Part shown: in pieces, positions 40,386-60,445 of the stretch | Layout of the letters: every line of letters begins with the position of its first letter | How positions within the stretch are numbered: position 1 is the stretch's first letter | Assembly (NCBI GenBank): GCA_964461205.1 | Contig: CAYWUL010000004.1 | Span: 1 to 63,845 of the forward strand | Reading direction: 5' to 3' | DNA from: an uncultured archaeon | GTDB taxonomy: Archaea > Iainarchaeota > Iainarchaeia > Iainarchaeales > JAAZKV01 | Length of the DNA: 63,845 nucleotides | Notes under the pieces: generated by a model | The model's database searches: none | What the model saw: the letters and a program-made list of their open reading frames with translations, nothing else | Told to the model about the DNA's origin: nothing | Made by a program: the position numbers and the translations under genes

Positions 40386-40520
40386 AACTTACATATAACA
40401 TAAGTCATTATTAAATGTAATTAACAATAAAAAAACAGTATTTTTTTACTCAAGGACAAGTTATTAAACAAGAAAGAACTAATTATAAAAGTCTGCAAAA
40501 CAAAAAATTGGGTGCTTTTC

Positions 40521-43709: not shown

Positions 43710-44605
43710 TGCAAGAAAAAAACCCAGTAATGATGTTGTTTCCACTAGAAAAAGCAAGGCATTTTAGTGATAAATATTTGTTTATTGGAAGAACATTATC
43801 AAAAATAATTTTCTCTCTTGAATATGATTTAAAAAATGCTGAAATAAAAATTGACGCAGAAAACTATTCACTCGCATCATTTATATCAGCCATAATTTAT
43901 GGAATATTATTTTTATTTGTCGGATTAGCATTCGGAGTTCTCATTGCAAAAGGATTTAACGCAACAACAATTATCATAACTATTGCAATTGGCATATTTG
44001 CTTTTTTAGGAGCACTAATTTTTCACTTATTGTACCCAAAAATACAAGCAATGCAATTAGCAAAAATGGTTGACCAAGAATTATTATTTGCATTAAGAAC
44101 TTTACTAATACAACTTAGTTCTGGAATAAGTTTGTTTGAAGCAATGAGATCTATTTCAAGGTCAAACTATGGGCAAGTTTCCGCAGAATTTGCAGAAGTT
44201 GTAAGAGATATTAACTCTGGAAAAAGTGAAACAACCGCTTTAGAAAAACTTGCATTCAGAACAAAATCCGATGTCCTAAAAAAAACTATTTGGCAAATAA
44301 TTACAACAATGAAATCTGGAGGATCAATTGCCAGCGCACTACAATCACAAATAGAAGAATTAGTCGCACAACAATCTGAAACAATAAAAAAATATGCAGC
44401 AGAACTAAATTTGTGGACATTAGTATACCTCATTATTGCAGCAGCAATGCCATCATTAGGAGTAACTTTCTTAGTAATAGCGTCTTCAATAGGTAGTTCA
44501 GGAATAGGAAAAGAAGCAGTAATATTAATCGCCGTGTTAGCAATGGTTATACAAGGAGCATTAATCTTTGTAATAAAAATGCAAGTTCCAAAGGTGATAA
44601 AATAA
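43709..44605 (+). CDS. type IV filament platform protein (TadB/C, ArlJ/PilC-like; one T2SSF domain)
   Basis: It has the T2SSF-type segment LLFALRTLLIQLSSGISLFEAMRSIS...SETTALEKLA plus 4 TM. Its ATG shares a base with the ATPase stop (TAATG). Confidence 0.8.
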   Translation: MQEKNPVMMLFPLEKARHFSDKYLFIGRTLSKIIFSLEYDLKNAEIKIDAENYSLASFISAIIYGILFLFVGLAFGVLIAKGFNATTIIITIAIGIFAFLGALIFHLLYPKIQAMQLAKMVDQELLFALRTLLIQLSSGISLFEAMRSISRSNYGQVSAEFAEVVRDINSGKSETTALEKLAFRTKSDVLKKTIWQIITTMKSGGSIASALQSQIEELVAQQSETIKKYAAELNLWTLVYLIIAAAMPSLGVTFLVIASSIGSSGIGKEAVILIAVLAMVIQGALIFVIKMQVPKVIK

Positions 44606-44742
44606 ATACTAGACAACTAGCATCAGTAGCGTCATTACTTGTTCCAAGAAAATTATTAGAAGGACCAATTTCTAACTGGTTAAAATATGCAGGATCACAC
44701 GATGACGAAAGAATATGGGCAGGAACAAGAGTATTCCTTTCT

Positions 44743-45654
44743 TTGTTAGTTGCAACAATAGGTTTTTTGATTCCATTCAGTGTTTTTCCAATATTAAATA
44801 TTTTCTTTGGTTATGAATTATACTTTGAACCCTTAATACAATTAGGAATAATGCTTGTATTAGCAGTGCTTGGTTTCTTTGCAACACTCGCACTTTTTTA
44901 TTTACACATCAATTATGTTATTGATGGAAGAAAAAAAATGGTTGAAGCAATATTGCCAGATTTTTTATTCTTGGTTGGAAACAATTTGAAAAGTGGAATG
45001 ACTCCATTCTATGCTTTTCGTTCAGCAGTAAGACCAGAATTTGGTCCACTAAGTGAAGAAATACAATTAGCAACAAAAAAGAGTTTAGGAATAGGATCTT
45101 TTGCTGACGCCCTAAAAGAAATCGCAGACAGAATTGATTCAAAAATTTTGAAAGACACAACAAAATTCTTTGCACATGCATTAAGATCTGGAGGAAGGCT
45201 AGCACAATTAATTGAAACAAGTGCTAATGATATAAAACAAACCAACCAATTAAAGAGAGACTTAGTTAATTCAACAAGAATGTATGTGTTGTTCATTGTG
45301 TTTGTTGTAATAATTGCATCACCAATGTTATTAGCAGTAAGTGTACAATTCCTAAATATTCTTAGTTCAATACAAACCGAAACTACTAATTTAAGCGGGG
45401 TCGGTAATGAAGATATTTCAAATCAAGTAGGTTTGGCAGGAGGACAAATAAGTATTGAACCAGAATTCATGCAATTCATGGGATACATCTTAATCATAAG
45501 TAACTCCGTCCTCGCCAGCATATTTGTCGGAGTCCTCAGTGGCGGCAAGATAAGAGACGGTTTAAAGTTTGCACCAGTATTATGCATTGTTGGCTTAATT
45601 TTATTCAGTATAATCGTTGAAGCAGTTGGATTATTAATTGGCGGAGCAATATAA
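44743..45654 (+). CDS. second T2SSF-domain platform protein (5' end unresolved)
   Basis: It has the T2SSF segment LPDFLFLVGNNLKSGMTPFYAFRSAV...SFADALKEIADR. The frame is open back past 44606 and encodes a plausible N-terminus (LASVASLLVPRKLLEGPISNWLKYAG), but without ATG/GTG/TTG. Confidence 0.8.
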   Translation: MLVATIGFLIPFSVFPILNIFFGYELYFEPLIQLGIMLVLAVLGFFATLALFYLHINYVIDGRKKMVEAILPDFLFLVGNNLKSGMTPFYAFRSAVRPEFGPLSEEIQLATKKSLGIGSFADALKEIADRIDSKILKDTTKFFAHALRSGGRLAQLIETSANDIKQTNQLKRDLVNSTRMYVLFIVFVVIIASPMLLAVSVQFLNILSSIQTETTNLSGVGNEDISNQVGLAGGQISIEPEFMQFMGYILIISNSVLASIFVGVLSGGKIRDGLKFAPVLCIVGLILFSIIVEAVGLLIGGAI

Positions 45655-45753: not shown

Positions 45754-46209
45754 ATGTTTAGAAAAAGGGGACAAGGAACAATCGAATACCTAGTAATAAT
45801 AGCAATCGTTGTTGTTATTGCGTTAGTGGTTGTAGGTTTATTGTTGCAAGTAATGGACCAAGGATCAGGCATTCCAGAAGCAACAGCAAAAACAGCATGG
45901 AAATCTGCTCAACCTTGGGCAATAACAGACTGGGACCAAAACACTACAGCCCTGGCACTTGTACTAAAAAATAATTCGTATGAGTCAATGGAACTGGAAG
46001 ATGTACATGTTAATGGAACCGCAGCAGTTTTTGAAGACTTCAATGTCTCGTCTGGAGCAACATCAACAGTATATGTTGCATTAACAGCTACAACGGCAGG
46101 AGACAAATACTCTTACGCAAAAGCCAACATATATATAACATATAATACAGCAAACATTAACGGAAAAAACCAATATGCATTAGCTGATATCGTAGGAACA
46201 GTCAGTTAG
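45754..46209 (+). CDS. archaeal type IV pilin (class III signal peptide, Q+1 type)
   Basis: The N-terminus is MFRKRGQGTIEYLVIIAIVVVIALVVVGLL: a positively charged n-region, G/A|Q, E at +5 and a hydrophobic helix. Length is 151 aa. Confidence 0.75.
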   Translation: MFRKRGQGTIEYLVIIAIVVVIALVVVGLLLQVMDQGSGIPEATAKTAWKSAQPWAITDWDQNTTALALVLKNNSYESMELEDVHVNGTAAVFEDFNVSSGATSTVYVALTATTAGDKYSYAKANIYITYNTANINGKNQYALADIVGTVS

Positions 46210-46322
46210 ATAGAAATAGCCTTCGGACTATTTTCTATTTCTTTTTTTTAATTCTTTTTTATTTTTCGAAACAAAAACATTTAAATATATGAAATACTAT
46301 ACTAAGTCAATTGAGTGGTAAC

Positions 46323-46769
46323 ATGTTTAATAAAAAAGCACAAGGAACAATCGAATACCTAGTAATAATAGCAATCGTTGTTGTTATTGCGTTGGTGGTT
46401 GTTGGAATACTTATACAATTGTTAGGACAAGGTGCGGGCATAAACGAAACAAATTCTAAAATTGCTTGGCAATCAGCAGAACCATGGGCAATAACAGACT
46501 GGGACCACAATGGAACACAACTAACAATAGTATTACAAAACAATACTGCAAAAACAATGGATTTTGTTTCTATCACAGTGAATGGGGATGCTAATAATGA
46601 TTCTGGACAAACAGGAGTATCACCAAACACAAAAATTACTAGAACAATTCAAAAAGCATGTACAAGTGGAACAAAATATTCTTATTCAACAGTAACAATT
46701 GATTATAATTCTGAAGACATATCTGGAAAACAACAAACAGGAATTGCGGATATAATTGGGACTTGTTAA
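46323..46769 (+). CDS. archaeal type IV pilin paralog
   Basis: The N-terminus is MFNKKAQGTIEYLVIIAIVVVIALVVVGIL. Nucleotides 46341-46402 match 45772-45833 at 61 of 62 positions. A conserved PWAITDWD block follows. Confidence 0.75.
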   Translation: MFNKKAQGTIEYLVIIAIVVVIALVVVGILIQLLGQGAGINETNSKIAWQSAEPWAITDWDHNGTQLTIVLQNNTAKTMDFVSITVNGDANNDSGQTGVSPNTKITRTIQKACTSGTKYSYSTVTIDYNSEDISGKQQTGIADIIGTC

Positions 46770-46865: not shown

Positions 46866-47693
46866 CTAGTTTAATATTTTTAGATAAGAATTAGAATCAA
46901 TCCTATTATCAGAATGACTCAAAATAGAATTAATTTTTACTGGCAAGAAATTTGCATCAAAAGAATAAGTAAGATTTATGTCATAATAAGTTATTTTTGT
47001 TGAGTTAGTATCAATCTTGAAAGAATTTGCTGTGCCAGTATCCCCAAGAGTTATTGTCGTATTAGAATCAGAATACAATAATACCAAGGTAGATGTATTA
47101 GAAGGATCAATTAAATCACTTATTGTGAAAGAATTTACATCGTCTTCATAACGAATTACGACCGGAGCAATTCCAGCAGTTCTTGTCCAAGTGTAAGAAG
47201 AAAGAGAACCATTATAATCCAAATTCAAATCAACACTTGAAAGAGTTATCCCATTAGAAGTTAAGGACACAAAAGGAGAATCATAATTGTGTGTAAAAGA
47301 AAAATTATCATCAAAAAATACTTCTAGTGAGCCATCATTAATATTTGTTAAATCAATTGTTTGTGTTCCTTTTATTCTAGCAAAAAAAGTATTATTTAAA
47401 AAAGAAGCATAATTTGTAAGAGCATTTGAAACAGAATATTGTTTTGGAAGAGAATCATTAATTATTATTTCTATTTTGTTTGCCTCATACCCTATTTTAA
47501 TATCTAAATCAAAAATTCTTTCTATATCAAAAGAAAGATCATCATTCAAAAAAGGTTCTGATGAAGTAGAGTAACTTCGTAGTATCATTGTTTCTCTTCC
47601 AATATTCTCATTCAAATAGTTTTGAGAAAAGAATAACAAAGTTGAAGCAAATAATACGACAGAAATCGTGAAAAGAAAACCTTTCTTATTCAT
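46866..47693 (-). CDS. minor pilin-like protein
   Basis: The N-terminus is MNKKGFLFTISVVLFASTLLFF. It is the last gene of the minus-strand pilin-like operon and overlaps the upstream gene by 4 nt. Confidence 0.5.
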   Translation of the reverse strand: MNKKGFLFTISVVLFASTLLFFSQNYLNENIGRETMILRSYSTSSEPFLNDDLSFDIERIFDLDIKIGYEANKIEIIINDSLPKQYSVSNALTNYASFLNNTFFARIKGTQTIDLTNINDGSLEVFFDDNFSFTHNYDSPFVSLTSNGITLSSVDLNLDYNGSLSSYTWTRTAGIAPVVIRYEDDVNSFTISDLIDPSNTSTLVLLYSDSNTTITLGDTGTANSFKIDTNSTKITYYDINLTYSFDANFLPVKINSILSHSDNRIDSNSYLKILN

Positions 47694-48175
47694 TTATACC
47701 ACGCCTCCATTTTTGCAACATAAAAAGAAACATTTGAATCATTAACAATAATAGTTCTTTCAACAGAAACTAATTCAGAAAAACTCTTTGTACAATCCGC
47801 TTTTAGTGCACCCAAAATAGGAGTATTTAAATCAGTAGAAGAATAAATCCTTGCTTCAAAACAAATTGATTGTAATGACTCGTTAATATTTTGTTGTATT
47901 AGTTCAGAAGATTGCTGTTTTATTGCATTTTCAAAAACCAAATTCTTTTCTAACACAGTAGAAAGATCTCTTGCAGAATTAATCAAGTCAATATTATTCC
48001 AAGAATCAATATTTACTTGTGCAACATAGGACAAAGAAACCAATATTAGAAAAGCAAGAACTGTTAAACCAATAAATGCATCTGAAGAAATAATAAATCC
48101 CCTGTTTTTTGGAAACCTATTACTTTTTTGGAGCCCCTCTTCATCAAAAAACCCTTTATTTTTCAAGTCCAACAA
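47690..48175 (-). CDS. minor pilin-like protein
   Basis: It has KNRG|FIISSDAFIGLTVLAFLILVSL after a long n-region. It overlaps the upstream gene by 20 nt. Confidence 0.5.
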   Translation of the reverse strand: MLDLKNKGFFDEEGLQKSNRFPKNRGFIISSDAFIGLTVLAFLILVSLSYVAQVNIDSWNNIDLINSARDLSTVLEKNLVFENAIKQQSSELIQQNINESLQSICFEARIYSSTDLNTPILGALKADCTKSFSELVSVERTIIVNDSNVSFYVAKMEAWYK

Positions 48176-48656
48176 CCCCTCTTAATACAGCTATTTGTTC
48201 ATTGAACAAAACTGTTCTTTCATAAATAATTTCTAACTTAGTATTGTTTGAATCTAAATAAGAAGTATAAAGAACACTGCCATTTAAATCAAGCAATTGT
48301 AATTTGAAATCATATCTTCCAAAACCAAGTTTTGATTTTGTTTGAGAATAACTATTATTTAAATCTGTAATTAATGCAACTAATTTTTCTTGACTAATAA
48401 CATTCCTATTTAAAGCTAAACCAAAAAGATTTGTGTCTGCTAAACTCTTTTCTTCCCAATTAAATGGTACACCGGGAGAATAAACTAAAATATTCATTGT
48501 TGAGTGCGAGACTTCATCGGCATCTTTTTTTATTTCAAAAAAATCTATTTGAGAAAAAACCGAGTTAGAAGAATAGAAAAAAAATCCTAAAATTACTAGG
48601 AAAATTGATATTGCTATTAACAAATCTGGAGAAAAAAATTGTCCTTTATTATTCAT
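48156..48656 (-). CDS. minor pilin-like protein
   Basis: The N-terminus is MNNKGQFFSPDLLIAISIFLVILGFFF. Confidence 0.55.
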   Translation of the reverse strand: MNNKGQFFSPDLLIAISIFLVILGFFFYSSNSVFSQIDFFEIKKDADEVSHSTMNILVYSPGVPFNWEEKSLADTNLFGLALNRNVISQEKLVALITDLNNSYSQTKSKLGFGRYDFKLQLLDLNGSVLYTSYLDSNNTKLEIIYERTVLFNEQIAVLRGVVGLEK

Positions 48657-48677
48657 GACTTACAACAACTCCCAACA

Positions 48678-49073
48678 TTATTCATAACTTACAACAACTC
48701 CATTATTTTGTTTTCTAAAATATATTCCACCATTAACATCAGTAATATTCCAAGTTACTTCTGCCAATAATGGAGCAGTTACTGCTTGACCATTAGAATA
48801 AACAACTCTCACAACACTCGGACCAATTTCAATGCTTTGGCCAATAGCATTCCAATAAATATTATCAAAATAATAAGAATTATCATCCATCAAAAAAACA
48901 TTATTAACATTTCTAGAAATCATGTTTGCTACTTCTTGTGCCCTCCATTGTTGAAAAGCAGTTTGGTTTAATGAAGTTCTATTTTGAAACAAAAACATTC
49001 CAAAACCAAATATTGCTAGCACCAAAATAATTGTAATAATAAACTCCATTGAAACTTGCGCTTTTTTATTCAT
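48678..49073 (-). CDS. pilin-like protein (class III signal peptide, Q+1 type)
   Basis: The N-terminus is MNKKAQVSMEFIITIILVLAIFGFGMF, with the QxSxEF signature. Confidence 0.65.
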   Translation of the reverse strand: MNKKAQVSMEFIITIILVLAIFGFGMFLFQNRTSLNQTAFQQWRAQEVANMISRNVNNVFLMDDNSYYFDNIYWNAIGQSIEIGPSVVRVVYSNGQAVTAPLLAEVTWNITDVNGGIYFRKQNNGVVVSYE

Positions 49074-49135: not shown

Positions 49136-52100
49136 CTAATTTCCTTCTCTTATAATAAATGCATGAGTTCCTGAAGCAGGAGAATACAATGTATCGGTTG
49201 TGCTGTCATACTGCTGAGTAACAAAACCAATCTTGTCGCCCGCATTCAATTCAAATCTTCCATATGTAGCAGAACTTGGATGTAGTGTTGCCCCACCAAC
49301 AACTATTCTTTGGTTTCTTGTTTCAACGTTTACCCCATCAACATTTTTGTCAATCCTTGACTGAATCCACTTGTTAACACTAATATTGAGATATCTTTGC
49401 ACAACATAAATCAAATAATTTCCATCTACTGGAGCAGTATATGAATAATCTGTTGTATCCCAAGCATCATGAGTATCAAAATCAACAACATCAAATGGAA
49501 TAGTTGTATTGGTTGCAAATTTAATTGATTGATCAGCAGACATGTGTACTCTTGCGGCAACAACCGGGCTCTCTAAAACTTTTCTTACTGACAGGAAGAC
49601 AGTCGCACTACCGGTGCTAAGATTAAGTGCACTAGTATTATTGTGGTACACCTTACTCAGTATTTTATCCTCGGCAGAAAAATAACTCAAATCAACCACT
49701 GTTTGTGTAGGCCAAGTTGTCCCGCCCAGACTGTTTTCTTTAAATGCCAAACCAGTCTCAACACCGTCAGTACTTTTATATAAAGCAATATATTGTCTTT
49801 TGCCGTCTGGCAAATCCTGCAATTGTATTCCTGCATTAGTAATATAATAACCCTCTTCAGGAACAACATACCAATTATTATCTAAATCAAAGTCTCCTTG
49901 TGGATCAAATGATTCTGTATCAAACGCACACTGAGTCCATGTTGAAGCAGGTATTGAAAGAGTTGATGTCGCATAGGCAGATGCTCCAACAAAAGTTCCT
50001 TCACTTAATTGTCTTATTGACATATAAGTCCAATTACTTAAACCAAGGACATACCTACTAGAATCAGTTGTTTGAACTTTTACATAAACTGTGTCTCCAG
50101 CATTTAAATCATAAATATTACTAGCAAACTCTGCACGATATGACCCTGCATCAAGATACGTGTAACCTCGTGCAATCATTGTTTCTGTTGAACCATCATA
50201 CTTGTATAAGCGAACATCCCAATTCTTATTAGTTGTTAAGTTATTGACTGTTGCTTGTAAAAAAATTTCATACTTTCCTGTTGTAGGAACAACAAACTCA
50301 TTATTCTCTGTATCAAAAGCATCCATTGAATCTTTGCGCACATAATCAAATGCCACTTTTGTAAGAGTGCTTGCAGTAAGATATTGATCTGTTGTAAGAC
50401 CAACAATTGTTACTAAAGGCGAAATTGCTGGAATTTCTGGTTCTTCAGGACACACACCAGTAACAGAATAAGTTGCATTAACATCCCTTAGAAAAGCACC
50501 AACATTGAAAAATCCTGCATTCCGGTCTGAAAAATCAGTATTTTGTTTGAACAAAATATCATAACCTAAATACTGAGAACTTGATAATGAAGAGATAGAA
50601 TAATCAGTGTTATTATTTATACCTGAAATATAATACTCAGATGTTTTTGTATTACAATTCTCATCACTACAAGAATAAACATTCAAATCCAAACGAGAAA
50701 CACCTTTCCTGTACAAATCAAGAATTTCTTCAGAAGATAATGCTCTTTCCCAAACTACGACTTCTTCAATTGCACCATCAAAATAATTTTGTATTACCCC
50801 CCTAACATTTCTAGCACCAATCGCAAAAGGATAACCACTCATATTCAATTGAGTAATGTCTCCAACAGTTCTACCAGTATCCCTTACTCCATTAATATAA
50901 ATATTCAAATCATCATTGTCTCCATTGTACAAGTATATTACTTGACTCCATTCACTAAGCGGAACAGTATTAAGTGAACATAGATTGTAAGTTGTACTAT
51001 TATTGCTTGCCCTTACTTGAACTTCTATTTCTAAAGGATCACATTGTCCATCTCCCAGCATTAATTCTACAATTGGATCATAAGTTCCTTTTTCTGGAAC
51101 AGTACTTACTATTCCATTATACCCCCCAACAGCATAACTTGCTGGTTTTATCCAAGCCATTATAGTCATACTTTGGTTTAAAGCAAAATCATCATCATAA
51201 CCTGTTTCAATATAATCATTCGAACCATCAAAATCATAACAATTTGTTCCCCACAAACAAGAAACATTTTCATCATTATCAAAATTTTGTGAAGACCCAT
51301 CATACCCATTCCCACTCGAATCTTCAAAATCTGTTACATCATCTTCAGCATTCAAATGCCACAACCCAACCAAACCATTATTGAATTGATCAGTATTACA
51401 AGTATCAACATTTCCACAAATCTCTTTACCAAAAGAATAATTAACATCATTATTCACTTTAATCGAATTCCAATCTGCACTCACATTATTAGAATCAACA
51501 ATAGAATCGGGAGAAGAAACAAACTTTGCTTCTAAAAAAGAATTATAATCTGCTTCTACCTCATCAGCAGTTAATGCCCTATCATAAATTTTTACTTCAT
51601 CAATTTCTCCTTCAAAATATTTGGTTTTCCAACGCCCTATGTTAAGATCGCTTGCACTAATATCTTCTGACAAAATAATTGCAACATGAACCCATTCATC
51701 TGAAGGGATTGGTTCTAATATTTCTCGAAATTGATACAAGTCAAAGTAACCATACTTAGCACTAGAGTCACTAGCATAAACTTGTATTGAAACCCGATAA
51801 GGATTACTAGAATCAGTATAACAAACACTTTGTATTTCTGTCCACGCAGTAGAATTACTTGTAATATACCCTGATGTTCCCCAATCCCCTGTGTCTTGAC
51901 AAAAAATTCTCAACTCAGTGGCATTCGCATTTTTTATCCAAGAGCTAATATAATATTTTTTATTAGCAGTAATAGAAATGTCTTGATATCCTTGGCCCCA
52001 TGTTGCACTTGTATCCTTAGTAAACTTGTTTGAATAACTACCATAATAAACTTCACTACTTTCTTGGGCTGAATCACCCTTATTATCAATCCAGCTAGTA

Positions 52101-54415
52101 GCATCACCGCCACTCCAATTTTCAAAATCAGTATTACCCATAAGGTGATTTCCTAAAAAACTAACAACTGTTCCATTAACATATGTAGTTGCATTAATAC
52201 CTTGCGTGTTTTGTACAAACCCACTATTCAAAATATAATCTGTGTTATTAAGGGACATTAAAGTATTGTCAGAAGAATCTGCTTTTACCCAATAAGAAAT
52301 ACTCCTAATATTTCCAACATCTCCCAAAGCAACATAATCACTATCCCCATCCAAACTTAAAGCATTTGAATCCCACATCCCTTTTGCAGAAATATTTGCG
52401 GTTCCAACAAGAGTTCCATCATACCCCCTTGCAGAATCATAAATTCCTATGTCACCATTTGTATCATTAAACTTATAATACGCAACAAGATTTTCATCCA
52501 ACCAGTCTTGTTTTTTAGATTCATATAAATCAAAAACTTCCGCACTGCTCAAAACTCTATTCCATATTCCAACTTCTTCTATAATCCCATCATATAAATA
52601 ATCGGGAGTTGTTGAAGCATGATAAGCCCCGCCAATAGTAACGGGAGAGACTTTATCAGGAATTTGTGTTGGAACTGTTCCATTTGATGTATATGTTGTA
52701 GCTACTTCCTCTCCATCAATATAAATATGAAAAGATTCATCTGCATCCCAAGTACCAGTAATTAAAGCCCATCGATTTAGCGGAATTGCTGAGTTAGTTT
52801 TTACTCTTTCCCAATAAGAATTATTCGATTGATTATAAATAAGAAAATCCAAAACATTGCTTGTAGAAACTCGGAGTAAAAAGCCTCTGTTTGAATCAGT
52901 TACTTCATAACCTCCAATTATTACCCCTGAATTGGGGTCACTTAATCCATCTGTGTAAACCCAAACACTCAAAGTTAGTTCTGTTGATCCACCTATTTCT
53001 TCAATGTTTCCAAAATTCACATAATCGTTTAAACCATCAAAAGTATAACTATTTGTATTCCATAATCCAGTTATCCCTTGTGTAGCACTCGTAACCGTTC
53101 CATCATAACCATTGCCTGAACTATCAATAGCATCTCCGCTAGATTCGTTTAAATGCCACAAAACTACTAAATTAGAATCAAACAAATAGTTTGTAGAATC
53201 CATCTCTCCAATCTCTCTTGAATTTTGATTCCAATCCAACTCACCAGTAGCAGTCCAAGAATTCGCATTAGTTATACTAGCAGAAGAAGAAATTTGTCGA
53301 ACAAAACCATTATAATCAAAAAAATGATTCAAATCAGAATTAGTGATAGAAAAGAATGTTGGATAGGAATAAGTGCATAAATTTTCGTCAGATGTTTCTG
53401 TTGCAGTAAATAATAAGTTAATGTCTGCTGTTGCTGTTAAACCACCAGCAAAAACATTTAATGTTCCAATATAATTTCCATTAGTGTCAGAAGCATTAAT
53501 GTCAAGAGATAATTGTTTACAAGAACTAGCAGGAATTGCTCCTGAAAAATTTGTGAAAGCATAAGAATTAATTGTTGATGATGTTGAGGAAGAAGAAGAC
53601 GCAAAATTTGTTCGCGTATTATTACACACTAAGAAAGTTGATGTTCCAGATTCACTAACTGCAAGAGAAATGTTTTTAGAAGAAGGATTTATTACTAAAT
53701 TACTTTGACCCTTACCACAAGTAATTGTTGCAGGAAGAGAAACATTTACATCACCTTCAAAAGTAACTGTTCCACTATAAGAACCAGTTGCACTAGAAGC
53801 ACAAGAAGCAATAAAAGGAATTGTTTCTTGTTCTCCATCAGTAAATTCTATTGTTGTATCTTGACTTGTAGATGTAAGAGTTGCTAGTGTATGAGAAAAA
53901 GAAATTCTTAAAGAATAATTTTTTGTTGTTGTTGCAATATTTGTTGCTTTCAAATTTATTTGTAAAGAAGAACCCTGGTTTACAGTTGGATTAATTGTTA
54001 CTGGGTCAAAAGAAAGTAAGTCGGAAGAAATAGAAACAAAGTCACCGTGAGAAGTAAGAGTAAAAACAATTGTCCCATCACTATTAGGCCATAACCCTCT
54101 AACAGTAGCATTTGTTGTTGCAACAAAATCAGTGTTGTAAATATTTAAGACGAGTGATTGATCTTGAATATAAGATTTTGTATAATCAATTCCTCTCGGC
54201 ATTGTTACAATAACTTCTTTTGTAGAACCAATACCTAAAAAATAAACATCATTTATTTCTTTTTTCAATGTTTCTAAAGCAAGAGAACCAATTTTGTGTT
54301 GTTGTTGAATGTTTTGGGTCTCCATTTGGTTCCAAACAATCGCCACAAAAGAAATCAGAATAAACATTGCTGTCGCGAAAATAATAATTGTTTCTATCGA
54401 TGCTTGCCCTCTCAT
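49136..54415 (-). CDS. giant pilin-like adhesin: class III signal peptide, Ig-like repeats, 3 LamG-type lectin modules, CBM-like module, 3 C1q/TNF-like repeats
   Basis: 1759 aa. The N-terminus is MRGQASIETIIIFATAMFILISF. LamG-type signatures (L-V-x-L/Y-W/Y-H/K-L/F-N...D-S-S/A-G-N/R-G-Y/F-D-G...F-D-G-x-N/S-D-Y-V...W-V/I-K) occur three times. GNTDFENWSGGDATSW is CBM-like. The C-terminal ~430 aa are three ~140-aa repeats. Confidence 0.8.
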   Translation of the reverse strand: MRGQASIETIIIFATAMFILISFVAIVWNQMETQNIQQQHKIGSLALETLKKEINDVYFLGIGSTKEVIVTMPRGIDYTKSYIQDQSLVLNIYNTDFVATTNATVRGLWPNSDGTIVFTLTSHGDFVSISSDLLSFDPVTINPTVNQGSSLQINLKATNIATTTKNYSLRISFSHTLATLTSTSQDTTIEFTDGEQETIPFIASCASSATGSYSGTVTFEGDVNVSLPATITCGKGQSNLVINPSSKNISLAVSESGTSTFLVCNNTRTNFASSSSSTSSTINSYAFTNFSGAIPASSCKQLSLDINASDTNGNYIGTLNVFAGGLTATADINLLFTATETSDENLCTYSYPTFFSITNSDLNHFFDYNGFVRQISSSASITNANSWTATGELDWNQNSREIGEMDSTNYLFDSNLVVLWHLNESSGDAIDSSGNGYDGTVTSATQGITGLWNTNSYTFDGLNDYVNFGNIEEIGGSTELTLSVWVYTDGLSDPNSGVIIGGYEVTDSNRGFLLRVSTSNVLDFLIYNQSNNSYWERVKTNSAIPLNRWALITGTWDADESFHIYIDGEEVATTYTSNGTVPTQIPDKVSPVTIGGAYHASTTPDYLYDGIIEEVGIWNRVLSSAEVFDLYESKKQDWLDENLVAYYKFNDTNGDIGIYDSARGYDGTLVGTANISAKGMWDSNALSLDGDSDYVALGDVGNIRSISYWVKADSSDNTLMSLNNTDYILNSGFVQNTQGINATTYVNGTVVSFLGNHLMGNTDFENWSGGDATSWIDNKGDSAQESSEVYYGSYSNKFTKDTSATWGQGYQDISITANKKYYISSWIKNANATELRIFCQDTGDWGTSGYITSNSTAWTEIQSVCYTDSSNPYRVSIQVYASDSSAKYGYFDLYQFREILEPIPSDEWVHVAIILSEDISASDLNIGRWKTKYFEGEIDEVKIYDRALTADEVEADYNSFLEAKFVSSPDSIVDSNNVSADWNSIKVNNDVNYSFGKEICGNVDTCNTDQFNNGLVGLWHLNAEDDVTDFEDSSGNGYDGSSQNFDNDENVSCLWGTNCYDFDGSNDYIETGYDDDFALNQSMTIMAWIKPASYAVGGYNGIVSTVPEKGTYDPIVELMLGDGQCDPLEIEVQVRASNNSTTYNLCSLNTVPLSEWSQVIYLYNGDNDDLNIYINGVRDTGRTVGDITQLNMSGYPFAIGARNVRGVIQNYFDGAIEEVVVWERALSSEEILDLYRKGVSRLDLNVYSCSDENCNTKTSEYYISGINNNTDYSISSLSSSQYLGYDILFKQNTDFSDRNAGFFNVGAFLRDVNATYSVTGVCPEEPEIPAISPLVTIVGLTTDQYLTASTLTKVAFDYVRKDSMDAFDTENNEFVVPTTGKYEIFLQATVNNLTTNKNWDVRLYKYDGSTETMIARGYTYLDAGSYRAEFASNIYDLNAGDTVYVKVQTTDSSRYVLGLSNWTYMSIRQLSEGTFVGASAYATSTLSIPASTWTQCAFDTESFDPQGDFDLDNNWYVVPEEGYYITNAGIQLQDLPDGKRQYIALYKSTDGVETGLAFKENSLGGTTWPTQTVVDLSYFSAEDKILSKVYHNNTSALNLSTGSATVFLSVRKVLESPVVAARVHMSADQSIKFATNTTIPFDVVDFDTHDAWDTTDYSYTAPVDGNYLIYVVQRYLNISVNKWIQSRIDKNVDGVNVETRNQRIVVGGATLHPSSATYGRFELNAGDKIGFVTQQYDSTTDTLYSPASGTHAFIIREGN
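53253..53342. repeat. 90-nt segment 88/90 identical to 56967-57056 (inside the two giant genes)
   Basis: Compared by eye, with two mismatches. It encodes NSDLNHFFDYNGFVRQI(S/F)SSASITNANSW. Confidence 0.85.
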
Positions 54416-54538: not shown

Positions 54539-57500
54539 TTATTCAGTATAATAAACAACATTTACATCCCTTAACAAAGAACCAACATTAAAAAACCCAG
54601 CATTATAATCACTAAAATCAGAATTTTGTTTGAAGAAAAAATCATAACCCAAATAACGAGAATTAACCAAATCAGAATTCAAATCCATCCAAGAATTATT
54701 ATTAGTGTCAGAAATATACTGCGAAGACGTCTTAATCACACAACTAGCATCACCACAAGAATAAACATTCAAATCTAAACTAGAAACACCCTTTCGATAT
54801 AAATCAAGAATCTCTTCTGTAGACAAAGCACGATCCCAAATAGCAACTTCATCTATTCTGCCGCTTCCACCAGAATAAGAAGTCCCACGATACCCATGCA
54901 AAGTTAATGCAGTTGCATTATCCCAAGAAGTAGTTGAATTGTCTGTTCCCGAATCCAACAACAACCCATTAAAGTATACTTTCATTGAACCACTTGCCTC
55001 ACGAGTTATAACTATGTGGTTCCAACTCAAAGCATAATTAACTCCAGTTGAAGTATAATTATACCATCCTTCAGTTTGACAGCCACAATAAATTTGTAAA
55101 TCCCCATCTGCTTGGAGCAAAACATAATTTGCTAAATCATTACCAGTTCCACACCCATCATTAGTACTTTTATCAAAAATAAATTGAACACTTCCAAAAT
55201 CGACATTAAACCAAGCACTTACTGAATAATCCCCAGTCTTTTTTATAGGAGACAAATCTCCAAAATTAATATAGTCATTAGTCCCATCAAAATCAAACGC
55301 ATTTGTCCCCCATAATCCTGAAACATTTTCATCATTATCAAAATTTTGTGGAGAACCCCCATTATCATTCCCACTATAATCTTTGAATGCATTATCAGCA
55401 TCTCCCGCATTCAAATGCCACAACCCAACTAAATTATTATCCATAAATTTATCTCTACCTAATCTGTAAAGATCTGTTATTTCTTGAGGAGTTAATCCCC
55501 TATCCCACACTGCAACTTCATCAATTTTTCCAGTAACATAATTTGTTACATTTCCAGTTCTACCAATTGCAGGATATTCTGTATCCGCATCTATTGAACC
55601 ACTCACGCCAGTCTGCTCAGCAACTTTTATTGCATCAACATATAACTCAACAGCACTACCATTATACGTTCCACAAATATGGTGCCATAAACCATCAGCA
55701 TCAATTGACTCTGTGCTTTGAGCAATTTTTGCAGAACCCCCAATAAAAATTAAAAATGCTGGAGCAGAAGGAGTAACAGCCCTATTCAAATAAAGATCAA
55801 AATTTCTATTTGTCCCATCATCACTAGTAAATAATCCTTGAGAAGTTACGCTACTATCGGAATTCACCCAAGTACAAACACTCATTTGTGCTAAACCAGT
55901 TAATGCACTTTGTCCTGTTGCACCAGTATCAAGCCAATCATTTGTAGCTAGATCAACACAATTTGTTCCCCACAAACAAGAAACATTCTCATCATCATCA
56001 AAACCATTTGGAGTTAATGTTAAACCATTCCCACTCGCATCTTCATATGCTGTATTTTCACCCATATTCAAATGCCATAATGCAATTAAATTCTCATCAA
56101 ACAAATAATGTGCACTTGTTAATTCTCCAGTACCATAACCAATTTCTGAGTTAAAATTATAATTCAAATCACTATTAACTTTTATTTGATTCCAATCCGC
56201 TGTTGCAGTAGCATCAACAATTGATTCAGGAGAAGAAACAAACTTTGCATTCAAAAAAGAATTATAATCTGCAATAACTTCTTTTGTTGTTAGTATTCTG
56301 TTATAAAATTTTACTTCATCTATTTCTCCTTTAAAATACCACCCACTATATTGTTGTCTTCCAATATATGTTCGTGTGTTATCCGTTGAAGTTATTGAAC
56401 CATAAGTTGCAACTGAAGAAAATGTCTTACTGAATCCATCAACAGTAAATGTTGCATCATCTCCAGAACCATCCCAACTTACAACCACATGGTGCCATTG
56501 CCCATCATTAACAATAAAACCACTATCAATTCTTTCGTTATCTGCATCCCCTGCATCCCCAACATACAACGCCACTTCCCCTGTACTTCGCACTCTTATA
56601 TAATATCCATTTGCACTCGCATCAATATATGACCAAGTGGGTTGGTCAGTAGCAGAACTTGTTTTAATCCAATGACTTACTGTAAAATCTCCCGTTCCAA
56701 CATCAAAAACAGTTGTATTGGGCAAATCAACATAATCGTTTATTCCATCTAAAATTAATGCATTAGAATCCCACATCCCTTTCAAATTGTTTTCATCAAT
56801 ATCCGCACCATTTACCAACGCGCCATCAAACCCTCTTGCAGAATCATATACCCCTGTTCCATCAGAATTAGTATCATTAAACTTATAATACGCAACAAGA
56901 TTCTGGTCACGCCAAGCATTATTATCTAACACAGCATTCCTATTCCAATCTAATTCTCCTGTTGGAGTCCAAGAATTCGCATTAGTTATACTAGCAGAAG
57001 AAAAAATTTGCCGAACAAAACCATTATAATCAAAAAAATGATTCAAATCAGAATTATCAATAGAAAAATAAGTTGAGCCAGGAACAGTGTATCCACCCGC
57101 GGGAGGTTCTGATTCAACAGAATTTGTAACTCTAATAAAAGAAGTATAATTATCATCTCCAGAAATTGCCGTAAGGTTTGCATCATAAATTGCAGAAGAA
57201 AGAGTTGGAATAACAATATTCATATCAAAGTTAGAACAAGAATTTGCATTAACATCAGTAATTAAAGGAAGAGTAAACCACGAAGCAGCATTAGCATCAA
57301 CATTACCATCTTTTCCCCAAGTAATATTTTCGATTAAAGAAACTGTTTTGTTACAAATAGAATAACTCTTTGTATAAGTTTCATCACCAAGAGAAGAAAT
57401 ACTTGTTAAGCGAGGATAAATTACTAGGTTACTAAATTCTGAAGCAACTTCAACAGAAACAGAAATTGTTTTTGTAATTGTTTCCCCACTAATAACAGAA

Positions 57501-58159
57501 GAAGCAACTATTCTTCCAGCATAATTTCCATTAGCATAAGGTTGTGTTGTAAAAGAAGCTGTAACAATTGTTGTTGCGCCAGGATCAAGAACAACTTCTG
57601 AATCACTAAGAGACATTGTCGCATCGGTGTGAGAAAAAGTTGGTGTTAAAGAAACAGTTATTTGTTCTGCATAATTATTTCTAACAGAAAAAGTTTCTTG
57701 TGTAGAAGAACCTTGTAAGATAGAAACAAAGATTGATTGTTTGTTTAATTCAAATTCTCTATAACGAATATTAACTGTGTCTCCGTTAAAATCAAGATAC
57801 ATATAATAACGTCCAGGAGTTGTTTTGAAAGAGCCACTCATTGGGATTTCTGTAAAAGCAATTACGTCAGTTCCGTTTGCTAAACGCAAAGAAACAGTTG
57901 AACTTTCAAAACCACTATTAGCAATATCAATACTTTCCGGAACTTCAATAAAAATTCTTATTTCAGAATCAATCCCGGATAAATAAGCCGTGTTTGCAGC
58001 ATTCGCAATTGTTTGCACAGTGTTTCTTGCTATTACCATATCTTGTGTTTCTCTTGTTGCCGAGACCTGCTCAGCATAGATAGCAAAGATTATTGCTAGC
58101 GCAACAACCGAAACTGATAACACTAATAACAACTCAATAGTTGTTTGACCTTTTTGCAT
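54539..58159 (-). CDS. giant pilin-like adhesin paralog: class III signal peptide, Ig-like repeats, 3 LamG-type modules
   Basis: 1206 aa. The N-terminus is MQKGQTTIELLLVLSVSVVALAIIFAIY. LamG-type signatures begin at LVAYYKFNDTNSDG, LIALWHLNMGEN and LVGLWHLNAGDAD. It shares the C-terminal module ...DLNVYSC...FFNVG.LLRDVN with the 1759-aa protein. Confidence 0.8.
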   Translation of the reverse strand: MQKGQTTIELLLVLSVSVVALAIIFAIYAEQVSATRETQDMVIARNTVQTIANAANTAYLSGIDSEIRIFIEVPESIDIANSGFESSTVSLRLANGTDVIAFTEIPMSGSFKTTPGRYYMYLDFNGDTVNIRYREFELNKQSIFVSILQGSSTQETFSVRNNYAEQITVSLTPTFSHTDATMSLSDSEVVLDPGATTIVTASFTTQPYANGNYAGRIVASSVISGETITKTISVSVEVASEFSNLVIYPRLTSISSLGDETYTKSYSICNKTVSLIENITWGKDGNVDANAASWFTLPLITDVNANSCSNFDMNIVIPTLSSAIYDANLTAISGDDNYTSFIRVTNSVESEPPAGGYTVPGSTYFSIDNSDLNHFFDYNGFVRQIFSSASITNANSWTPTGELDWNRNAVLDNNAWRDQNLVAYYKFNDTNSDGTGVYDSARGFDGALVNGADIDENNLKGMWDSNALILDGINDYVDLPNTTVFDVGTGDFTVSHWIKTSSATDQPTWSYIDASANGYYIRVRSTGEVALYVGDAGDADNERIDSGFIVNDGQWHHVVVSWDGSGDDATFTVDGFSKTFSSVATYGSITSTDNTRTYIGRQQYSGWYFKGEIDEVKFYNRILTTKEVIADYNSFLNAKFVSSPESIVDATATADWNQIKVNSDLNYNFNSEIGYGTGELTSAHYLFDENLIALWHLNMGENTAYEDASGNGLTLTPNGFDDDENVSCLWGTNCVDLATNDWLDTGATGQSALTGLAQMSVCTWVNSDSSVTSQGLFTSDDGTNRNFDLYLNRAVTPSAPAFLIFIGGSAKIAQSTESIDADGLWHHICGTYNGSAVELYVDAIKVAEQTGVSGSIDADTEYPAIGRTGNVTNYVTGKIDEVAVWDRGLTPQEITDLYRLGRDKFMDNNLVGLWHLNAGDADNAFKDYSGNDNGGSPQNFDNDENVSGLWGTNAFDFDGTNDYINFGDLSPIKKTGDYSVSAWFNVDFGSVQFIFDKSTNDGCGTGNDLANYVLLQADGDLQIYCGCQTEGWYNYTSTGVNYALSWNHIVITREASGSMKVYFNGLLLDSGTDNSTTSWDNATALTLHGYRGTSYSGGSGRIDEVAIWDRALSTEEILDLYRKGVSSLDLNVYSCGDASCVIKTSSQYISDTNNNSWMDLNSDLVNSRYLGYDFFFKQNSDFSDYNAGFFNVGSLLRDVNVVYYTE
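56967..57056. repeat. partner copy of the 53253-53342 segment
   Basis: See the 53253-53342 entry. Confidence 0.85.
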
Positions 58160-58234
58160 GTGTAAATTAGGTTAAATGGATATTTATTATTAGCGCTAAG
58201 CAAGGTTTTTATTGTGTAAAGGTGTTTGTTAACT

Positions 58235-58777
58235 ATGGCAAACAATTTTTTGAAAGAAGTCATTGCAAATACAACAAACAAGGTTAACCTAGTAATAATT
58301 AATCAAAAACAATTCAAAACATCAATTGATTATTTACTAGAAAAATTGTTATTAGAACAGAAAAACGAGATCATCTTGGTTTCTTTTTCTCAACCAGGAA
58401 AAGAAATATTGAACAAATTTAATAGTCCAAAACTACATATTATTGATGCTTTTTCAGAGGAAGAAGAAAACGAAAAAATTATTTATTTAAAGGCGGGCAA
58501 TTTAACAAAACTACAAATAGAGATTGATGAATTAATGAAAGAAAAATCAATTGTTATTTTTGATTCCTTAGGTGTGCTCGGTTTGTATAATTCTGCACAA
58601 GATGTTGGAAAATTTGTTTACTTTTTTAGTAACAAAATAAAACTTAATAATAATTCGTGTATTTTTGTTGTTGTAAAAGAAAGTATTGATGAAGAAACAC
58701 TTAACTTTGCAAAACAATTCTGTGACAGAACATATAATTTTTCAGAATTATTTGTTTCTATAGAAGAAACAACATAA
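58235..58777 (+). CDS. KaiC/ArlH-like RecA-fold protein lacking Walker A (paralog of 39729-40385)
   Basis: It has a Walker B-like SIVIFDSLGVLGLY, the same IFDSLGVL.LY block as the other copy. The P-loop position reads SFSQPGKE. Confidence 0.45.
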   Translation: MANNFLKEVIANTTNKVNLVIINQKQFKTSIDYLLEKLLLEQKNEIILVSFSQPGKEILNKFNSPKLHIIDAFSEEEENEKIIYLKAGNLTKLQIEIDELMKEKSIVIFDSLGVLGLYNSAQDVGKFVYFFSNKIKLNNNSCIFVVVKESIDEETLNFAKQFCDRTYNFSELFVSIEETT

Positions 58778-58819
58778 AAACAAAATAAATTTGTTTTTTC
58801 AAAAAAACTAATTGAAAAA

Positions 58820-59923
58820 TTAGAATACTTCTACATCAGGATAAACTACTAATCCTTTCTTCTCAAAATTAATTGCACATAACTTGTTAGTGTGTTTTGT
58901 TCCGCGCATTTTTACTATTTCTAAGGAATGAATACGCAGACCTTTTTCCTCATCATGGTGGTAATACATTGATATTACAGAATCACTAATGAATGCAATA
59001 CTTCCTTCTGTGTCCTCTAATTTTTCTGGAGAATCTTCAGCAATTACTACTGATGTTATACCCCACTTTGCTAGCAAATTAAAAAAATTTAATACTTCTT
59101 CTCTTCTCTTGTATTCATCATGGAATAACAAACCATATGCAGTAATAGAATCAATCACAACTCTCTTCGCACCAATTTCTGTAAGAGCATCTCTTATTTG
59201 GCCTCCCCCTTCTTCCAAAATCTTTGTTACTTGGTGTGGCTTGAAATATAATAACATGAATTTTTTATCCTCTTCTAGTTTTTTGAAATCCCAACCAAAC
59301 TGTAACGCATGCTTGTACAAAGAATCTCTCTCTTCTTCAAAAGAAATAAAGATTCCAGGCTCATTATATTTTGTTACTCCTTCATAAAGAAATTGCATTC
59401 CAAGAAGAGTTTTTCCTGTACCTGCAGAACCAACCAATAAAATAATTGAATCCCTTTCAAATCCGCCAGAAATAAGTTCATCAAAACCCTTTATTCCCGT
59501 AGGAACTCTATTAGAAACTTTTTCTTCAACACTTAAATCATCATTTTTTTCTTCAATATTCTCTTCTTTTTTTTCAACAGTATTTTCTTCAATGGATTCA
59601 TCTTTCTTTGGTTCCATTTTTTCAACAACATTTTCTTTTTCTTTAGTCACATTATCCTTTTCTTCTATAACATTATCTCCCGGTTCCATTTTTTCAACAA
59701 CATTTTCTTCTTTAGGCATAGACTCTTCTTTAATAGAAATAGAATTATCTTTCTCTTCAATCGGTTTAATGACAACCGCCGTATTGTCTTCTTCAAAAGA
59801 ATCAGAATTCCTTTCAGAAACCTTTACAACATCTTCTTCCTTTTTCTCTTTTTTTGGGTTATCCATTAAGATTACCGGTTCTTCTTCTTTTGGTTCAAAT
59901 ACTTGTTCGTCCATTATTACCAC
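58820..59923 (-). CDS. KaiC/RAD55-family ATPase with E/K-rich repeat N-terminal extension
   Basis: The C-terminal 230 aa carry GIKGFDELISGGFERDSIILLVGSAGTGKT (Walker A), VVIDSITA (Walker B) and SLEIVKMRGTKH. The N-terminal ~135 aa contain repeated ENVVEKMEP units. Confidence 0.8.
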   Translation of the reverse strand: MVIMDEQVFEPKEEEPVILMDNPKKEKKEEDVVKVSERNSDSFEEDNTAVVIKPIEEKDNSISIKEESMPKEENVVEKMEPGDNVIEEKDNVTKEKENVVEKMEPKKDESIEENTVEKKEENIEEKNDDLSVEEKVSNRVPTGIKGFDELISGGFERDSIILLVGSAGTGKTLLGMQFLYEGVTKYNEPGIFISFEEERDSLYKHALQFGWDFKKLEEDKKFMLLYFKPHQVTKILEEGGGQIRDALTEIGAKRVVIDSITAYGLLFHDEYKRREEVLNFFNLLAKWGITSVVIAEDSPEKLEDTEGSIAFISDSVISMYYHHDEEKGLRIHSLEIVKMRGTKHTNKLCAINFEKKGLVVYPDVEVF

Positions 59924-60001: not shown

Positions 60002-60445
60002 ATGAACCCATTATCAGAATACTTTACTAATTTTGATATTTTTTATGGTGGGCTATTGGGTTTTGCGGTAATATTTTGTTTCTTCTATGTATTCACATAT
60101 TTTTCAATAAGGGGAAAATTTGATAATCCACATGAAAAAGCATTAGAAGTATTATTGCCACCAATACTCGTTGGTTTTTTTCTTAATTTTCTTGGTTTTC
60201 CTTCACTAATAGTTGGGATAATTGTAATATTAACATATCTAGTCTTTACAAAGGGTTATTTGAAATTAGAATTTGGGGAATGGATAACGAATTCAATATC
60301 ATTGATTATTTTACTTACTATCTTGGGTTTTCTTGATATTGTTTTGAGATGGATTTTGTTTGCTGGCTTTTTAGGGTACACTATTATTAGTAGTGAAAAG
60401 AGAATCAAAGATATGGAAGAAAAGAGTGAGAAAAAGAAAGAGTAA
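60002..60445 (+). CDS. hypothetical 4-TM membrane protein
   Basis: 147 aa with hydrophobic segments and a K/E tail. Confidence 0.45.
   Translation: MNPLSEYFTNFDIFYGGLLGFAVIFCFFYVFTYFSIRGKFDNPHEKALEVLLPPILVGFFLNFLGFPSLIVGIIVILTYLVFTKGYLKLEFGEWITNSISLIILLTILGFLDIVLRWILFAGFLGYTIISSEKRIKDMEEKSEKKKE

Follow-up and report, generated by a model that had tools for sequence, protein, structure and literature searches.

How a protein of 1759 amino acids (aa) that begins like a small pilin and ends in a run of binding domains might serve its cell is the question raised by a locus on contig CAYWUL010000004.1 (assembly GCA_964461205.1), a stretch of 63,845 nucleotides (nt) from an uncultured archaeon of the Iainarchaeales that was analysed over its whole length and is called the window here. 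The prevailing view of DPANN archaea is that they live fixed to the cells of hosts, and the molecules that make and specify this contact are for the most part unknown; the archaeon at hand is tiny and probably symbiotic. The gene at issue, gene B, lies in a conserved pilus locus, and its product is probably a modular minor pilin that acts as the adhesin of a DPANN (Iainarchaeota-like) type IV pilus. A first-pass annotation made from the sequence had proposed a huge, pilin-headed candidate tip adhesin; the adhesin part of that proposal is supported by the binding modules, the pilin-like head and the conservation of the locus, whereas a location at the tip is something that we infer.

The open reading frame (ORF) of gene B runs through 1759 codons without interruption, and its ATG, the earliest start codon past the upstream stop, has a Shine-Dalgarno-like GGTG 6 nt to its 5' side. 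The public gene call (P0001, 1729 aa) begins at Met31, an internal methionine without a Shine-Dalgarno-like site, and so aa 1–30 (window positions 54326–54415) are dropped and the pilin-type signal is lost from the public annotation. Homologues P0008 and P0012 are also called from within or past the N-terminal helix. Public calls of the gene B family are often N-terminally truncated in this way, which hides the pilin head and leaves 'LamG domain-containing protein' as the only name.

The N-terminus of the full-length protein, MRGQASIETIIIFATAMFILISF, reads MRG↓QASIETIIIFATAMFILISFVAIVW (the arrow marks the predicted cleavage point), that is a short charged leader ending in Gly followed by about 20 hydrophobic residues, and it contains the one transmembrane segment predicted for the protein. 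The start had been described earlier as K/R-G↓Q..(S/T).E followed by a hydrophobic helix; the pattern is present, and Gln at +1 (Q4) and Glu at +5 (E8) are invariant in 11 of the 11 homologues with a complete N-terminus, with [KRT][AG] preceding them. A leader ending in Gly with a +1 Gln and a +5 Glu is the signature reported for the proteins that EppA, a pilin peptidase of Methanococcus, processes (PMC3875500). Aligned by hhalign, a profile of the heads matches a profile of the major pilins of the locus, which themselves pass Pfam Class_IIIsignal (PF04021), in register over aa 1–30 (probability 80%, E 1.3e-5). An AlphaFold2 (AF2) model of aa 1–345, made with a 13-sequence alignment and having a mean predicted local distance difference test score (pLDDT) of 86, contains one unbroken helix from aa 2 to 60 (pLDDT 79–94) and then a small beta-sheet from aa 65 to 132 (pLDDT 84–93). 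The suggestion that the first 30 or so residues would model as a pilin alpha1 helix is borne out in that they fall within this long helix of the first 60 residues, ahead of the sheet. The sheet domain (aa 61–133, with the motif NDVYFLGPG) is the best conserved part of the family, and a helix followed by a small sheet is, as modelled, consistent with a pilin fold.

The head is encoded within a pilus operon. The order of the locus is kept in 13 GTDB species-representative loci (DPANN, Iainarchaeota-like) and on contigs of 788 kb and 625 kb, and comprises a KaiC-like gene, a DUF835-like gene, gene A, gene B and four small pilin-like genes, followed on the other strand by the major pilin gene or genes, two platform genes and the ATPase gene. 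Gene A, upstream of gene B, encodes a paralogue with the same type of head. The major pilin, platform and ATPase genes are transcribed divergently from genes A and B and the small pilin-like genes.

Several results weigh against a pilin assignment and are best considered together. In Pfam and NCBIfam scans of the head (aa 1–140) no pilin model rises above threshold, and PF04021 matches 3 of the 11 family heads, at best with an E of 0.058, that of gene B not being among them. A profile of the 11 heads run against PDB sequences yields only matches at chance level (ubiquitin and the like). Foldseek with the model of aa 1–345 returns only tandem immunoglobulin-like (Ig) proteins and no pilin-specific match, the Ig domains dominating the search, and since the search is thus uninformative on the pilin part the pilin fold is to be called consistent rather than proven. 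The leader is just three residues long, and E+5, absent from bacterial tip-cap pilins, is kept in the gene B protein. Finally, even at E<=10 no prepilin peptidase is found among the multi-transmembrane ORFs of the window, which is the entire contig, or of the homologous loci that were fetched.

Two of these results, the failure of curated pilin models to recognise the head and the peptidase not being found in the window or the homologous loci, would fit a surface adhesin in which the pilin-type N-terminus, cleaved or uncleaved, does no more than hold the protein in the cytoplasmic membrane or in a short stub like a pseudopilus, so that the lectin array coats the cell surface much as the sugar-binding proteins with class III signals do in the Sulfolobus bindosome. 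Class III signals are indeed not confined to subunits of filaments, the bindosome having been noted in this connection (PMC4858521). Such a bindosome-like or signal-anchored protein nevertheless seems to us rather unlikely, because the head is a conserved 133-residue module of helix plus sheet and hence more than a transmembrane helix, because its gene always belongs to a complete pilus operon that also includes four small pilin-like genes, and because an inert anchor would have no need of the invariance of Q+1 and E+5.

The modular pilin reading also has to account for what follows the head. The beta-rich Ig-like segments proposed at first are found by AF2 and Foldseek as two ASH/PapD-like beta-sandwiches, modelled at aa 134–235 and aa 240–337 and matching tandem Ig domains of the HYDIN/CEP192/RbmA type (E 1e-11 to 1e-7); among their cysteines C264 and C299 never vary, and at least 90% of sequences keep C205 and C233. 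Beyond them Laminin_G_3 (PF13385) matches the protein in three stretches, with E 1e-54 and 185 bits over the full length (cut-off 27.6), and by domain with 92.0 bits for LamG1, 37.1 for LamG2 (which is split) and 89.4 for LamG3. The LamG starts placed by the first-pass annotation at nt 53172, 52495 and 51375 fall within 1–3 nt of the three start motifs NLVVLWHLNE (aa 415), NLVAYYKFND (aa 642) and GLVGLWHLNA (aa 1014). The third LamG domain is followed by a family-specific module containing Cys, beginning LDLNVYSCSDENCNTKTS, which lies at or near the C-terminus of P0002–P0016 and of the 1206-aa paralogue and terminates most homologues.

The split in LamG2 is due to a nested domain containing GNTDFENWSGGDATSW at aa 760, which had been noticed as a segment resembling a carbohydrate-binding module (CBM). 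Its direct recognition by Pfam fails, CBM_4_9 (PF02018) giving no match on aa 740–910 even at E<=5. When phmmer was run exhaustively with the nested segment against 1.8 billion representatives, however, 58 relatives were found (best E 7.5e-19), and among the ten top matches scanned the matched region is a PF02018 domain in P0045, P0047, P0048, P0053 and P0055. A profile of the nested-domain family run against the PDB matches the CBM16 structure 2ZEX (E 2.8e-9), the CBM61 structure 2XOM (1e-6) and the CBM22 structure 2W5F (1e-6). Homology of this kind confirms aa ~755–900 as a predicted sugar-binding domain of CBM_4_9 type, now placed more precisely inside LamG2. All relatives have a contiguous LamG domain to which the parts of LamG2 on either side of the CBM are orthologous, and the nested CBM is therefore specific to the gene B protein within its family.

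Modules of the CBM_4_9 type usually accompany glycoside hydrolases, as they do in the PDB matches of the nested domain, and the LamG superfamily includes glucanases, so that a polysaccharide-degrading enzyme displayed at the surface, in effect a glycoside hydrolase held there by its pilin-like N-terminus, comes to mind. This is highly improbable. Each of the three LamG domains is matched by Laminin_G_3, a non-enzymatic lectin type like pentaxin and sialidase-N-terminal domains, and with no catalytic family detected by Pfam across the 1759 residues we reject the glycoside hydrolase reading.

Comparison with relatives bears on which part of the modular pilin is constant and which is not. Twelve relatives (973–2284 aa, from archaeal metagenome-assembled genomes) and the 1206-aa paralogue share the first 345 residues at 23–44% identity. 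Across the 13 loci a 350-residue core of A and B, made of helix, sheet and two Ig domains, is constant, and the C-terminal extension that follows it varies from 0 to ~1900 aa. Gene B encodes 352–353 aa in two genomes, 621–758 aa in five and 1631–2287 aa in three, and in locus L011 it is gene A (1211 aa) and the third gene of the series (697 aa), and not gene B, that carry the extension. Orthologues of gene A in related genomes are just 350–390 aa long. In the window a 134-nt stretch is 90% identical at the nucleotide level between genes A and B (53228–53361 and 56942–57075), several further stretches of 110–170 nt stand at 75–80% (among them 50467–50771 against 54550–54857), and the N-terminal 350 residues of A and B are ~28% identical as protein. 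So similar a stretch behind heads so far diverged, together with the short gene A orthologues, suggests that gene A gained its LamG array from gene B by recombination.

The array is also found on other carriers. P0013 (1330 aa) bears the LamG array and the C-terminal module of the family on a major-pilin-type N-terminus, KAQGTIEYLIIIAIVVVIALVVV, that is nearly identical to that of the 151- and 152-aa pilins of the window. The 389-aa protein P0077 has a canonical bacterial type IV pilin N-terminus, FTLIELLVVIAIIGIL, and the same composite of a LamG domain with a nested CBM, its identity to the LamG2[CBM] composite of gene B being 31% over 322 aa (E 4e-38), which hints that this cargo has been exchanged between bacterial and archaeal pilin carriers. 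In P0015 and P0016 the same LamG array follows an ordinary signal peptide and is accompanied by a C-terminal membrane anchor; here it belongs to a plain surface protein, a point in favour of the anchored surface adhesin considered above. Taken together the variable extension, L011, the sharing between A and B, P0013, P0015 and P0016, and P0077 show a carrier-plus-cargo design, in which binding modules appear to be swapped among pilin-type carriers.

The same comparison bears on whether A and B are parts of the structure or of its assembly, that is a base, a sheath or a collar resembling the S-layer and crossing the envelope, with the LamG and Ig domains as scaffold. A survey of 2026 does note that the Ig-rich adhesin-like proteins of archaeal type four filament loci look like S-layer proteins and might prepare the wall for the pilus to pass (10.64898/2026.04.22.720090), and genes A and B keep their 350-aa core even where no cargo follows it. 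A cargo that goes from 0 to ~1900 aa among close relatives is, however, typical of ligand-facing modules under diversifying pressure and not of scaffolds, and the distal CBM and C1q-like domains are classic binding modules, so we regard a structural role as improbable.

At the C-terminus, presumably the distal end of the adhesin, stand the three C1q-like repeats that the first-pass annotation had reported. They are homologous to one another (BLASTP E 5e-13 for repeats 1 and 2, 3e-12 for 1 and 3, 2e-8 for 2 and 3, at 24–28% identity) and the fold is well matched, though the Pfam cut-off for C1q (PF00386) is reached by repeat 1 only, and marginally (24.0–26.2 bits against 23.7). Repeat 1 is matched more weakly by TNF (21.7 bits) and BclA_C (19.1 bits) as well; repeats 2 and 3 have no Pfam C1q match on their own, and repeat 2 shares the family motifs F-D..D, G.Y and AxD. 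A profile of the repeats run against the PDB finds nearly exclusively chains of the C1q/TNF superfamily. As MAFFT aligned every database homologue with repeat 3, so that repeats 1 and 2 had no depth of alignment, a single repeat was modelled. The AF2 model of repeat 1, with a 14-sequence alignment, has a pLDDT of 91.1 and a predicted template-modelling score (pTM) of 0.85. Foldseek aligns it with Caprin-2, C1QL, C1q, the NC1 domain of collagen X and TNF-family proteins at template-modelling (TM) scores of 0.72–0.86, root-mean-square deviations of 2.5–3.6 Å and probability 1.00, and, with TM scores of up to 0.88, with the domains that end the tail fibres of phages and archaeal viruses distally. 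Fold and internal homology, more than Pfam, are accordingly the grounds for the C1q assignment.

The terminal triplet is seen in no other member of the gene B family. A homologue search with the C-terminal block of 440 aa found one protein only, the tail-fibre-like P0041, and a profile search with the C1q-like domain found 14 short or partial proteins. The partial proteins P0105, P0109 and P0111, from short contigs and in one case from Candidatus Bilamarchaeaceae, contain tandem copies of the C1q-like domain. Single-chain arrays of C1q-like domains in multiple copies may thus be spread more widely among small archaea.

C1q/TNF heads are obligate trimers, to which each of three chains contributes one domain. 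That a monomeric pilin should carry precisely three divergent copies, with linkers just a few residues long between them, suggests a pseudo-trimer formed within the molecule, and that such a chain is able to fold is indicated by engineered single-chain C1q and cerebellin, the structures of which (PDB 5HKJ and 5KCA) are among the matches of the repeat profile. It is tentatively proposed, by analogy, that the three domains might pack as a single-chain pseudo-trimer forming a host-recognition knob of viral style at the end of the pilus of this episymbiont-like archaeon, with the swappable cargo as a determinant of host range. Were this so, the gene B protein would be a natural counterpart of the engineered single-chain C1q/TNF proteins and would join a monomeric pilin to the trimeric receptor-binding knob of viral tail-fibre tips, and a cargo of 0–1900 aa exchanged on a constant carrier would set the host range of DPANN-host pairing.

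For the processing, incorporation, position and ligands of the gene B protein we infer a route in which the product of a gene outside the window, a class III signal (prepilin) peptidase, would remove the MRG leader after Gly3, leaving the alpha1 helix (aa 4–60) and beta-sheet (aa 61–133) to form the pilin module. The neighbouring machine, with its ATPase and two platform proteins, would pull this module out of the membrane, and it would enter the filament along with paralogue A and all four of the small pilin-like proteins, most likely in a priming complex that ends up at the tip. The two Ig-like domains would then be a stalk that holds out a cargo of ~1400 residues, consisting of the three LamG domains (one with its nested CBM) and the distal block of three C1q/TNF-like receptor-binding domains, and this cargo would bind glycans or surface proteins of the host cell or substrate. 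Quite where at the end of the filament the protein would sit is qualified by E+5. Bacterial subunits of the GspK type are tip caps without this residue, and so its retention in gene B means that 'tip' may stand for sub-terminal. By analogy the 275-aa small pilin-like protein may be the better candidate for the extreme cap, with the giant perhaps directly below it and its cargo pointing outward.

Among known systems the nearest in design are the bacterial modular pilins, such as PilC (a ConA-like lectin) and PilB (a vWA module) of S. sanguinis (PMC8179133; PMC9934059). As in these, a small pilin module (here aa 1–133) is fused to grafted binding modules, often LamG or ConA-like (here two Ig, three LamG, one CBM and three C1q-like domains), with a predicted place at the tip and small minor pilins as partners, and P0077 shares its LamG[CBM] composite with the gene B protein. 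The survey of Raynaud et al. 2021 has PF13385 among the extra modules of the 15 most frequent architectures, and the largest example in it is 860 aa long (PMC8179133). That set was defined by the bacterial pilin motif IPR012902 (PMC8179133), and the gene B protein, lacking an N_methyl motif, falls outside it as so defined; PF07963 (N_methyl) matches 1 of the 11 family heads, with E 0.11. Unlike bacterial modular pilins, gene B has an archaeal-type signal (Q+1), two Ig stalk domains and a cargo of ~1400 aa with seven binding domains, and a C1q-like terminal triplet is not among the architectures mentioned in PMC8179133.

In gene content the locus is like the archaeal clade-1 or system-1 (Epd-like) model, in which two genes for platform proteins are described along with five or more minor pilins and a pair of large proteins predicted to be adhesins of the tip (PMC4858521). 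System 1 has been found also in some DPANN, and proteins with class III signals and sugar-binding domains were noted (10.64898/2026.04.22.720090). The likeness consists in an ATPase, platform proteins encoded by two separate genes, several small proteins with class III signals and two large predicted adhesins, with an ATPase of the KaiC family close by and with substrates that have Q+1 and E+5 as those of Methanococcus EppA do (PMC3875500). The differences are that Pfam finds Laminin_G_3 and no DUF2341 in the gene B protein, unlike the large system-1 proteins with DUF2341; that there is no EppA or FleN/MinD gene in the pilus locus of the window; and that the major pilins of the window are ~150 aa with a globular domain, unlike the Epd pilin of ~70 aa.

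LamG jelly-rolls are expanded in DPANN and have been proposed to serve host contact, and giant LamG-rich surface proteins of the SPEARE type are known from Nanohaloarchaea. Some of the expanded LamG proteins adjoin type IV pilus loci, as reported for Mia14/ARMAN (PMC5498576). The gene B protein resembles them in its LamG domains, and differs in having a pilin-type head, a constant carrier with variable cargo, and CBM and C1q-like additions that are not described in those reports. At its other end it is like the C1q head, cerebellins, Caprin-2, BclA and the knobs of viral tail fibres in placing a 10-strand jelly-roll (TM score 0.72–0.88) distally on an elongated protein, and unlike the known C1q/TNF trimers of three chains in having three divergent copies on a single chain, only a few residues apart. 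CofB of enterotoxigenic Escherichia coli, TcpB of Vibrio and GspK-I-J of the type II secretion system are enlarged minor pilins with extra beta-domains that start assembly and sit at the tip with small minor pilins. Gene B has no sequence relationship with these, and its system is without an outer-membrane secretin; CofB trimerises, and in gene B a possible intramolecular trimer would replace that step.

The gene B protein thus corresponds, in an archaeon, to the modular pilins of bacteria and to the large adhesins that have been predicted for pili of the Epd-like type, and what is new in it is a matter of degree, namely its size, the series of constant carriers with variable cargo over 13 genomes, the nested CBM and the terminal C1q-like triplet. 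Adhesin-bearing pilins in DPANN are what specialists would expect; a single-chain C1q-like head is unusual. As a candidate for DPANN host recognition the locus is concrete and testable, with a conserved head that would plug into the machine and a changeable outer end for lectin-type or receptor binding. A constant carrier with 0 to ~1900 residues of cargo extends the principle of the modular pilin to archaea at a far larger scale, and the variable cargo points to the parts that probably set partner specificity.

Table 1. Positions in the window of gene B, the domains of its product and the genes of the surrounding pilus locus.
Feature	Position	Strand	Basis
Gene B, modular pilin-like adhesin, 1759 aa	49136..54415	(-)	Intact ORF and Shine-Dalgarno-like site
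Class III (prepilin-type) signal MRG↓QASIE and long hydrophobic/amphipathic alpha1 helix, aa 1–60	54236..54415	(-)	
Conserved N-terminal beta-sheet domain, aa 61–133, presumed globular part of pilin module	54017..54235	(-)	AF2
Two Ig-like (ASH/PapD-like) beta-sandwich stalk domains, aa 134–340, conserved Cys pairs	53396..54016	(-)	
LamG domain 1, aa 415–636 (Pfam match 461–627)	52508..53173	(-)	Laminin_G_3, E 5.3e-26
LamG domain 2, aa 642–965, interrupted by nested domain	51521..52492	(-)	Laminin_G_3 in two stretches, E 4.5e-9
Predicted CBM_4_9-type carbohydrate-binding jelly-roll, aa ~755–900 (~145 aa), nested in LamG domain 2	51716..52153	(-)	
LamG domain 3, aa 1014–1238 (Pfam match 1063–1231)	50702..51376	(-)	Laminin_G_3, E 3.5e-25
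Family-specific Cys-containing module, aa 1239–1318	50462..50701	(-)	No Pfam match
C1q/TNF-like jelly-roll repeat 1, aa 1331–1473	49997..50425	(-)	Pfam C1q, AF2, Foldseek
C1q/TNF-like repeat 2, aa 1474–1617	49565..49996	(-)	BLASTP to repeat 1, E 5e-13, 28% identity
C1q/TNF-like repeat 3, aa 1618–1759, C-terminal, presumably distal end	49139..49564	(-)	BLASTP
Gene A, paralogue, 1206-aa pilin-like protein (MQKG↓QTTIE), two Ig and three LamG domains	54539..58159	(-)	
Four genes for small pilin-like proteins (candidate minor pilins) of 131, 166, 161 and 275 aa, downstream of gene B	46866..49073	(-)	
Two major-pilin candidates, 151 and 152 aa, RG↓QGTIEY...	45754..46769	(+)	Pfam Class_IIIsignal
Assembly machinery: 1065-aa FlaI/T2SSE-family ATPase and two T2SSF/TadC-like platform proteins	40512..45654	(+)	
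KaiC-like ATPase (-) and DUF835/DUF7504-like protein (+), conserved neighbour pair	58226..59923	(-) and (+)	

As to the other genes of the locus, the two major-pilin candidates score 29.2 and 26.0 bits with Class_IIIsignal (cut-off 23.7), and their N-terminus is almost invariant across loci. The four small pilin-like proteins begin KA↓QVSME, KG↓QFFSPD, RG↓FIISSD and KG↓FLFTIS, with a hydrophobic helix after each. In three of these proteins (166, 161 and 275 aa; 46866–48656), those with QFFSPD, FIISSD and FLFTIS, E+5 is missing, and the same is seen across the 13 loci. The assembly machinery is recognised by Pfam as T2SSE (E 2e-33) and T2SSF (E 7e-18 and 3.7e-13) and by NCBIfam as FlaI-like and UpsF-like. 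In the ATPase (40512–43709) the FlaI/T2SSE-type region begins near residue 610, the orthologues being 802 to 1043 aa long, and the N-terminal extension of ~600 residues has no family match in Pfam or NCBIfam.

The KaiC-like and DUF835-like proteins (KaiC E 1.8e-58; DUF835 31.8 bits, under its cut-off) are likely regulators, and an association of KaiC with type IV pili has been reported (PMC4858521). Like this pair, a 147-aa protein with four transmembrane segments (60002–60445) keeps its position beside the pilus locus in related genomes. Considered as a minimal peptidase of the TadV type, this ORF gave no match even at E<=10.

The window has a G+C content of ~31% and is a piece of archaeal chromosome, encoding a thermosome, a putative form-III-type RuBisCO, class I aminoacyl-tRNA synthetases, a tRNA-intron endonuclease and pyruvate phosphate dikinase (PPDK). 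The homologue of the RuBisCO large subunit (24673–25974, E 2e-85) and PPDK (14661–17315) are thus on the same contig as the pilus locus, and together they stand for a carbon metabolism of the nucleotide-salvage type that is frequently reported for DPANN. At 19406–21775, next to a membrane protein of the Acyl_transf_3 family, is a protein of 789 aa with ~13 predicted transmembrane segments, for which Pfam gives no match except a trace of EpsG (E 0.2). It could be an enzyme resembling glycosyltransferases or oligosaccharyltransferases, and as such relevant to the glycosylation of surface proteins.

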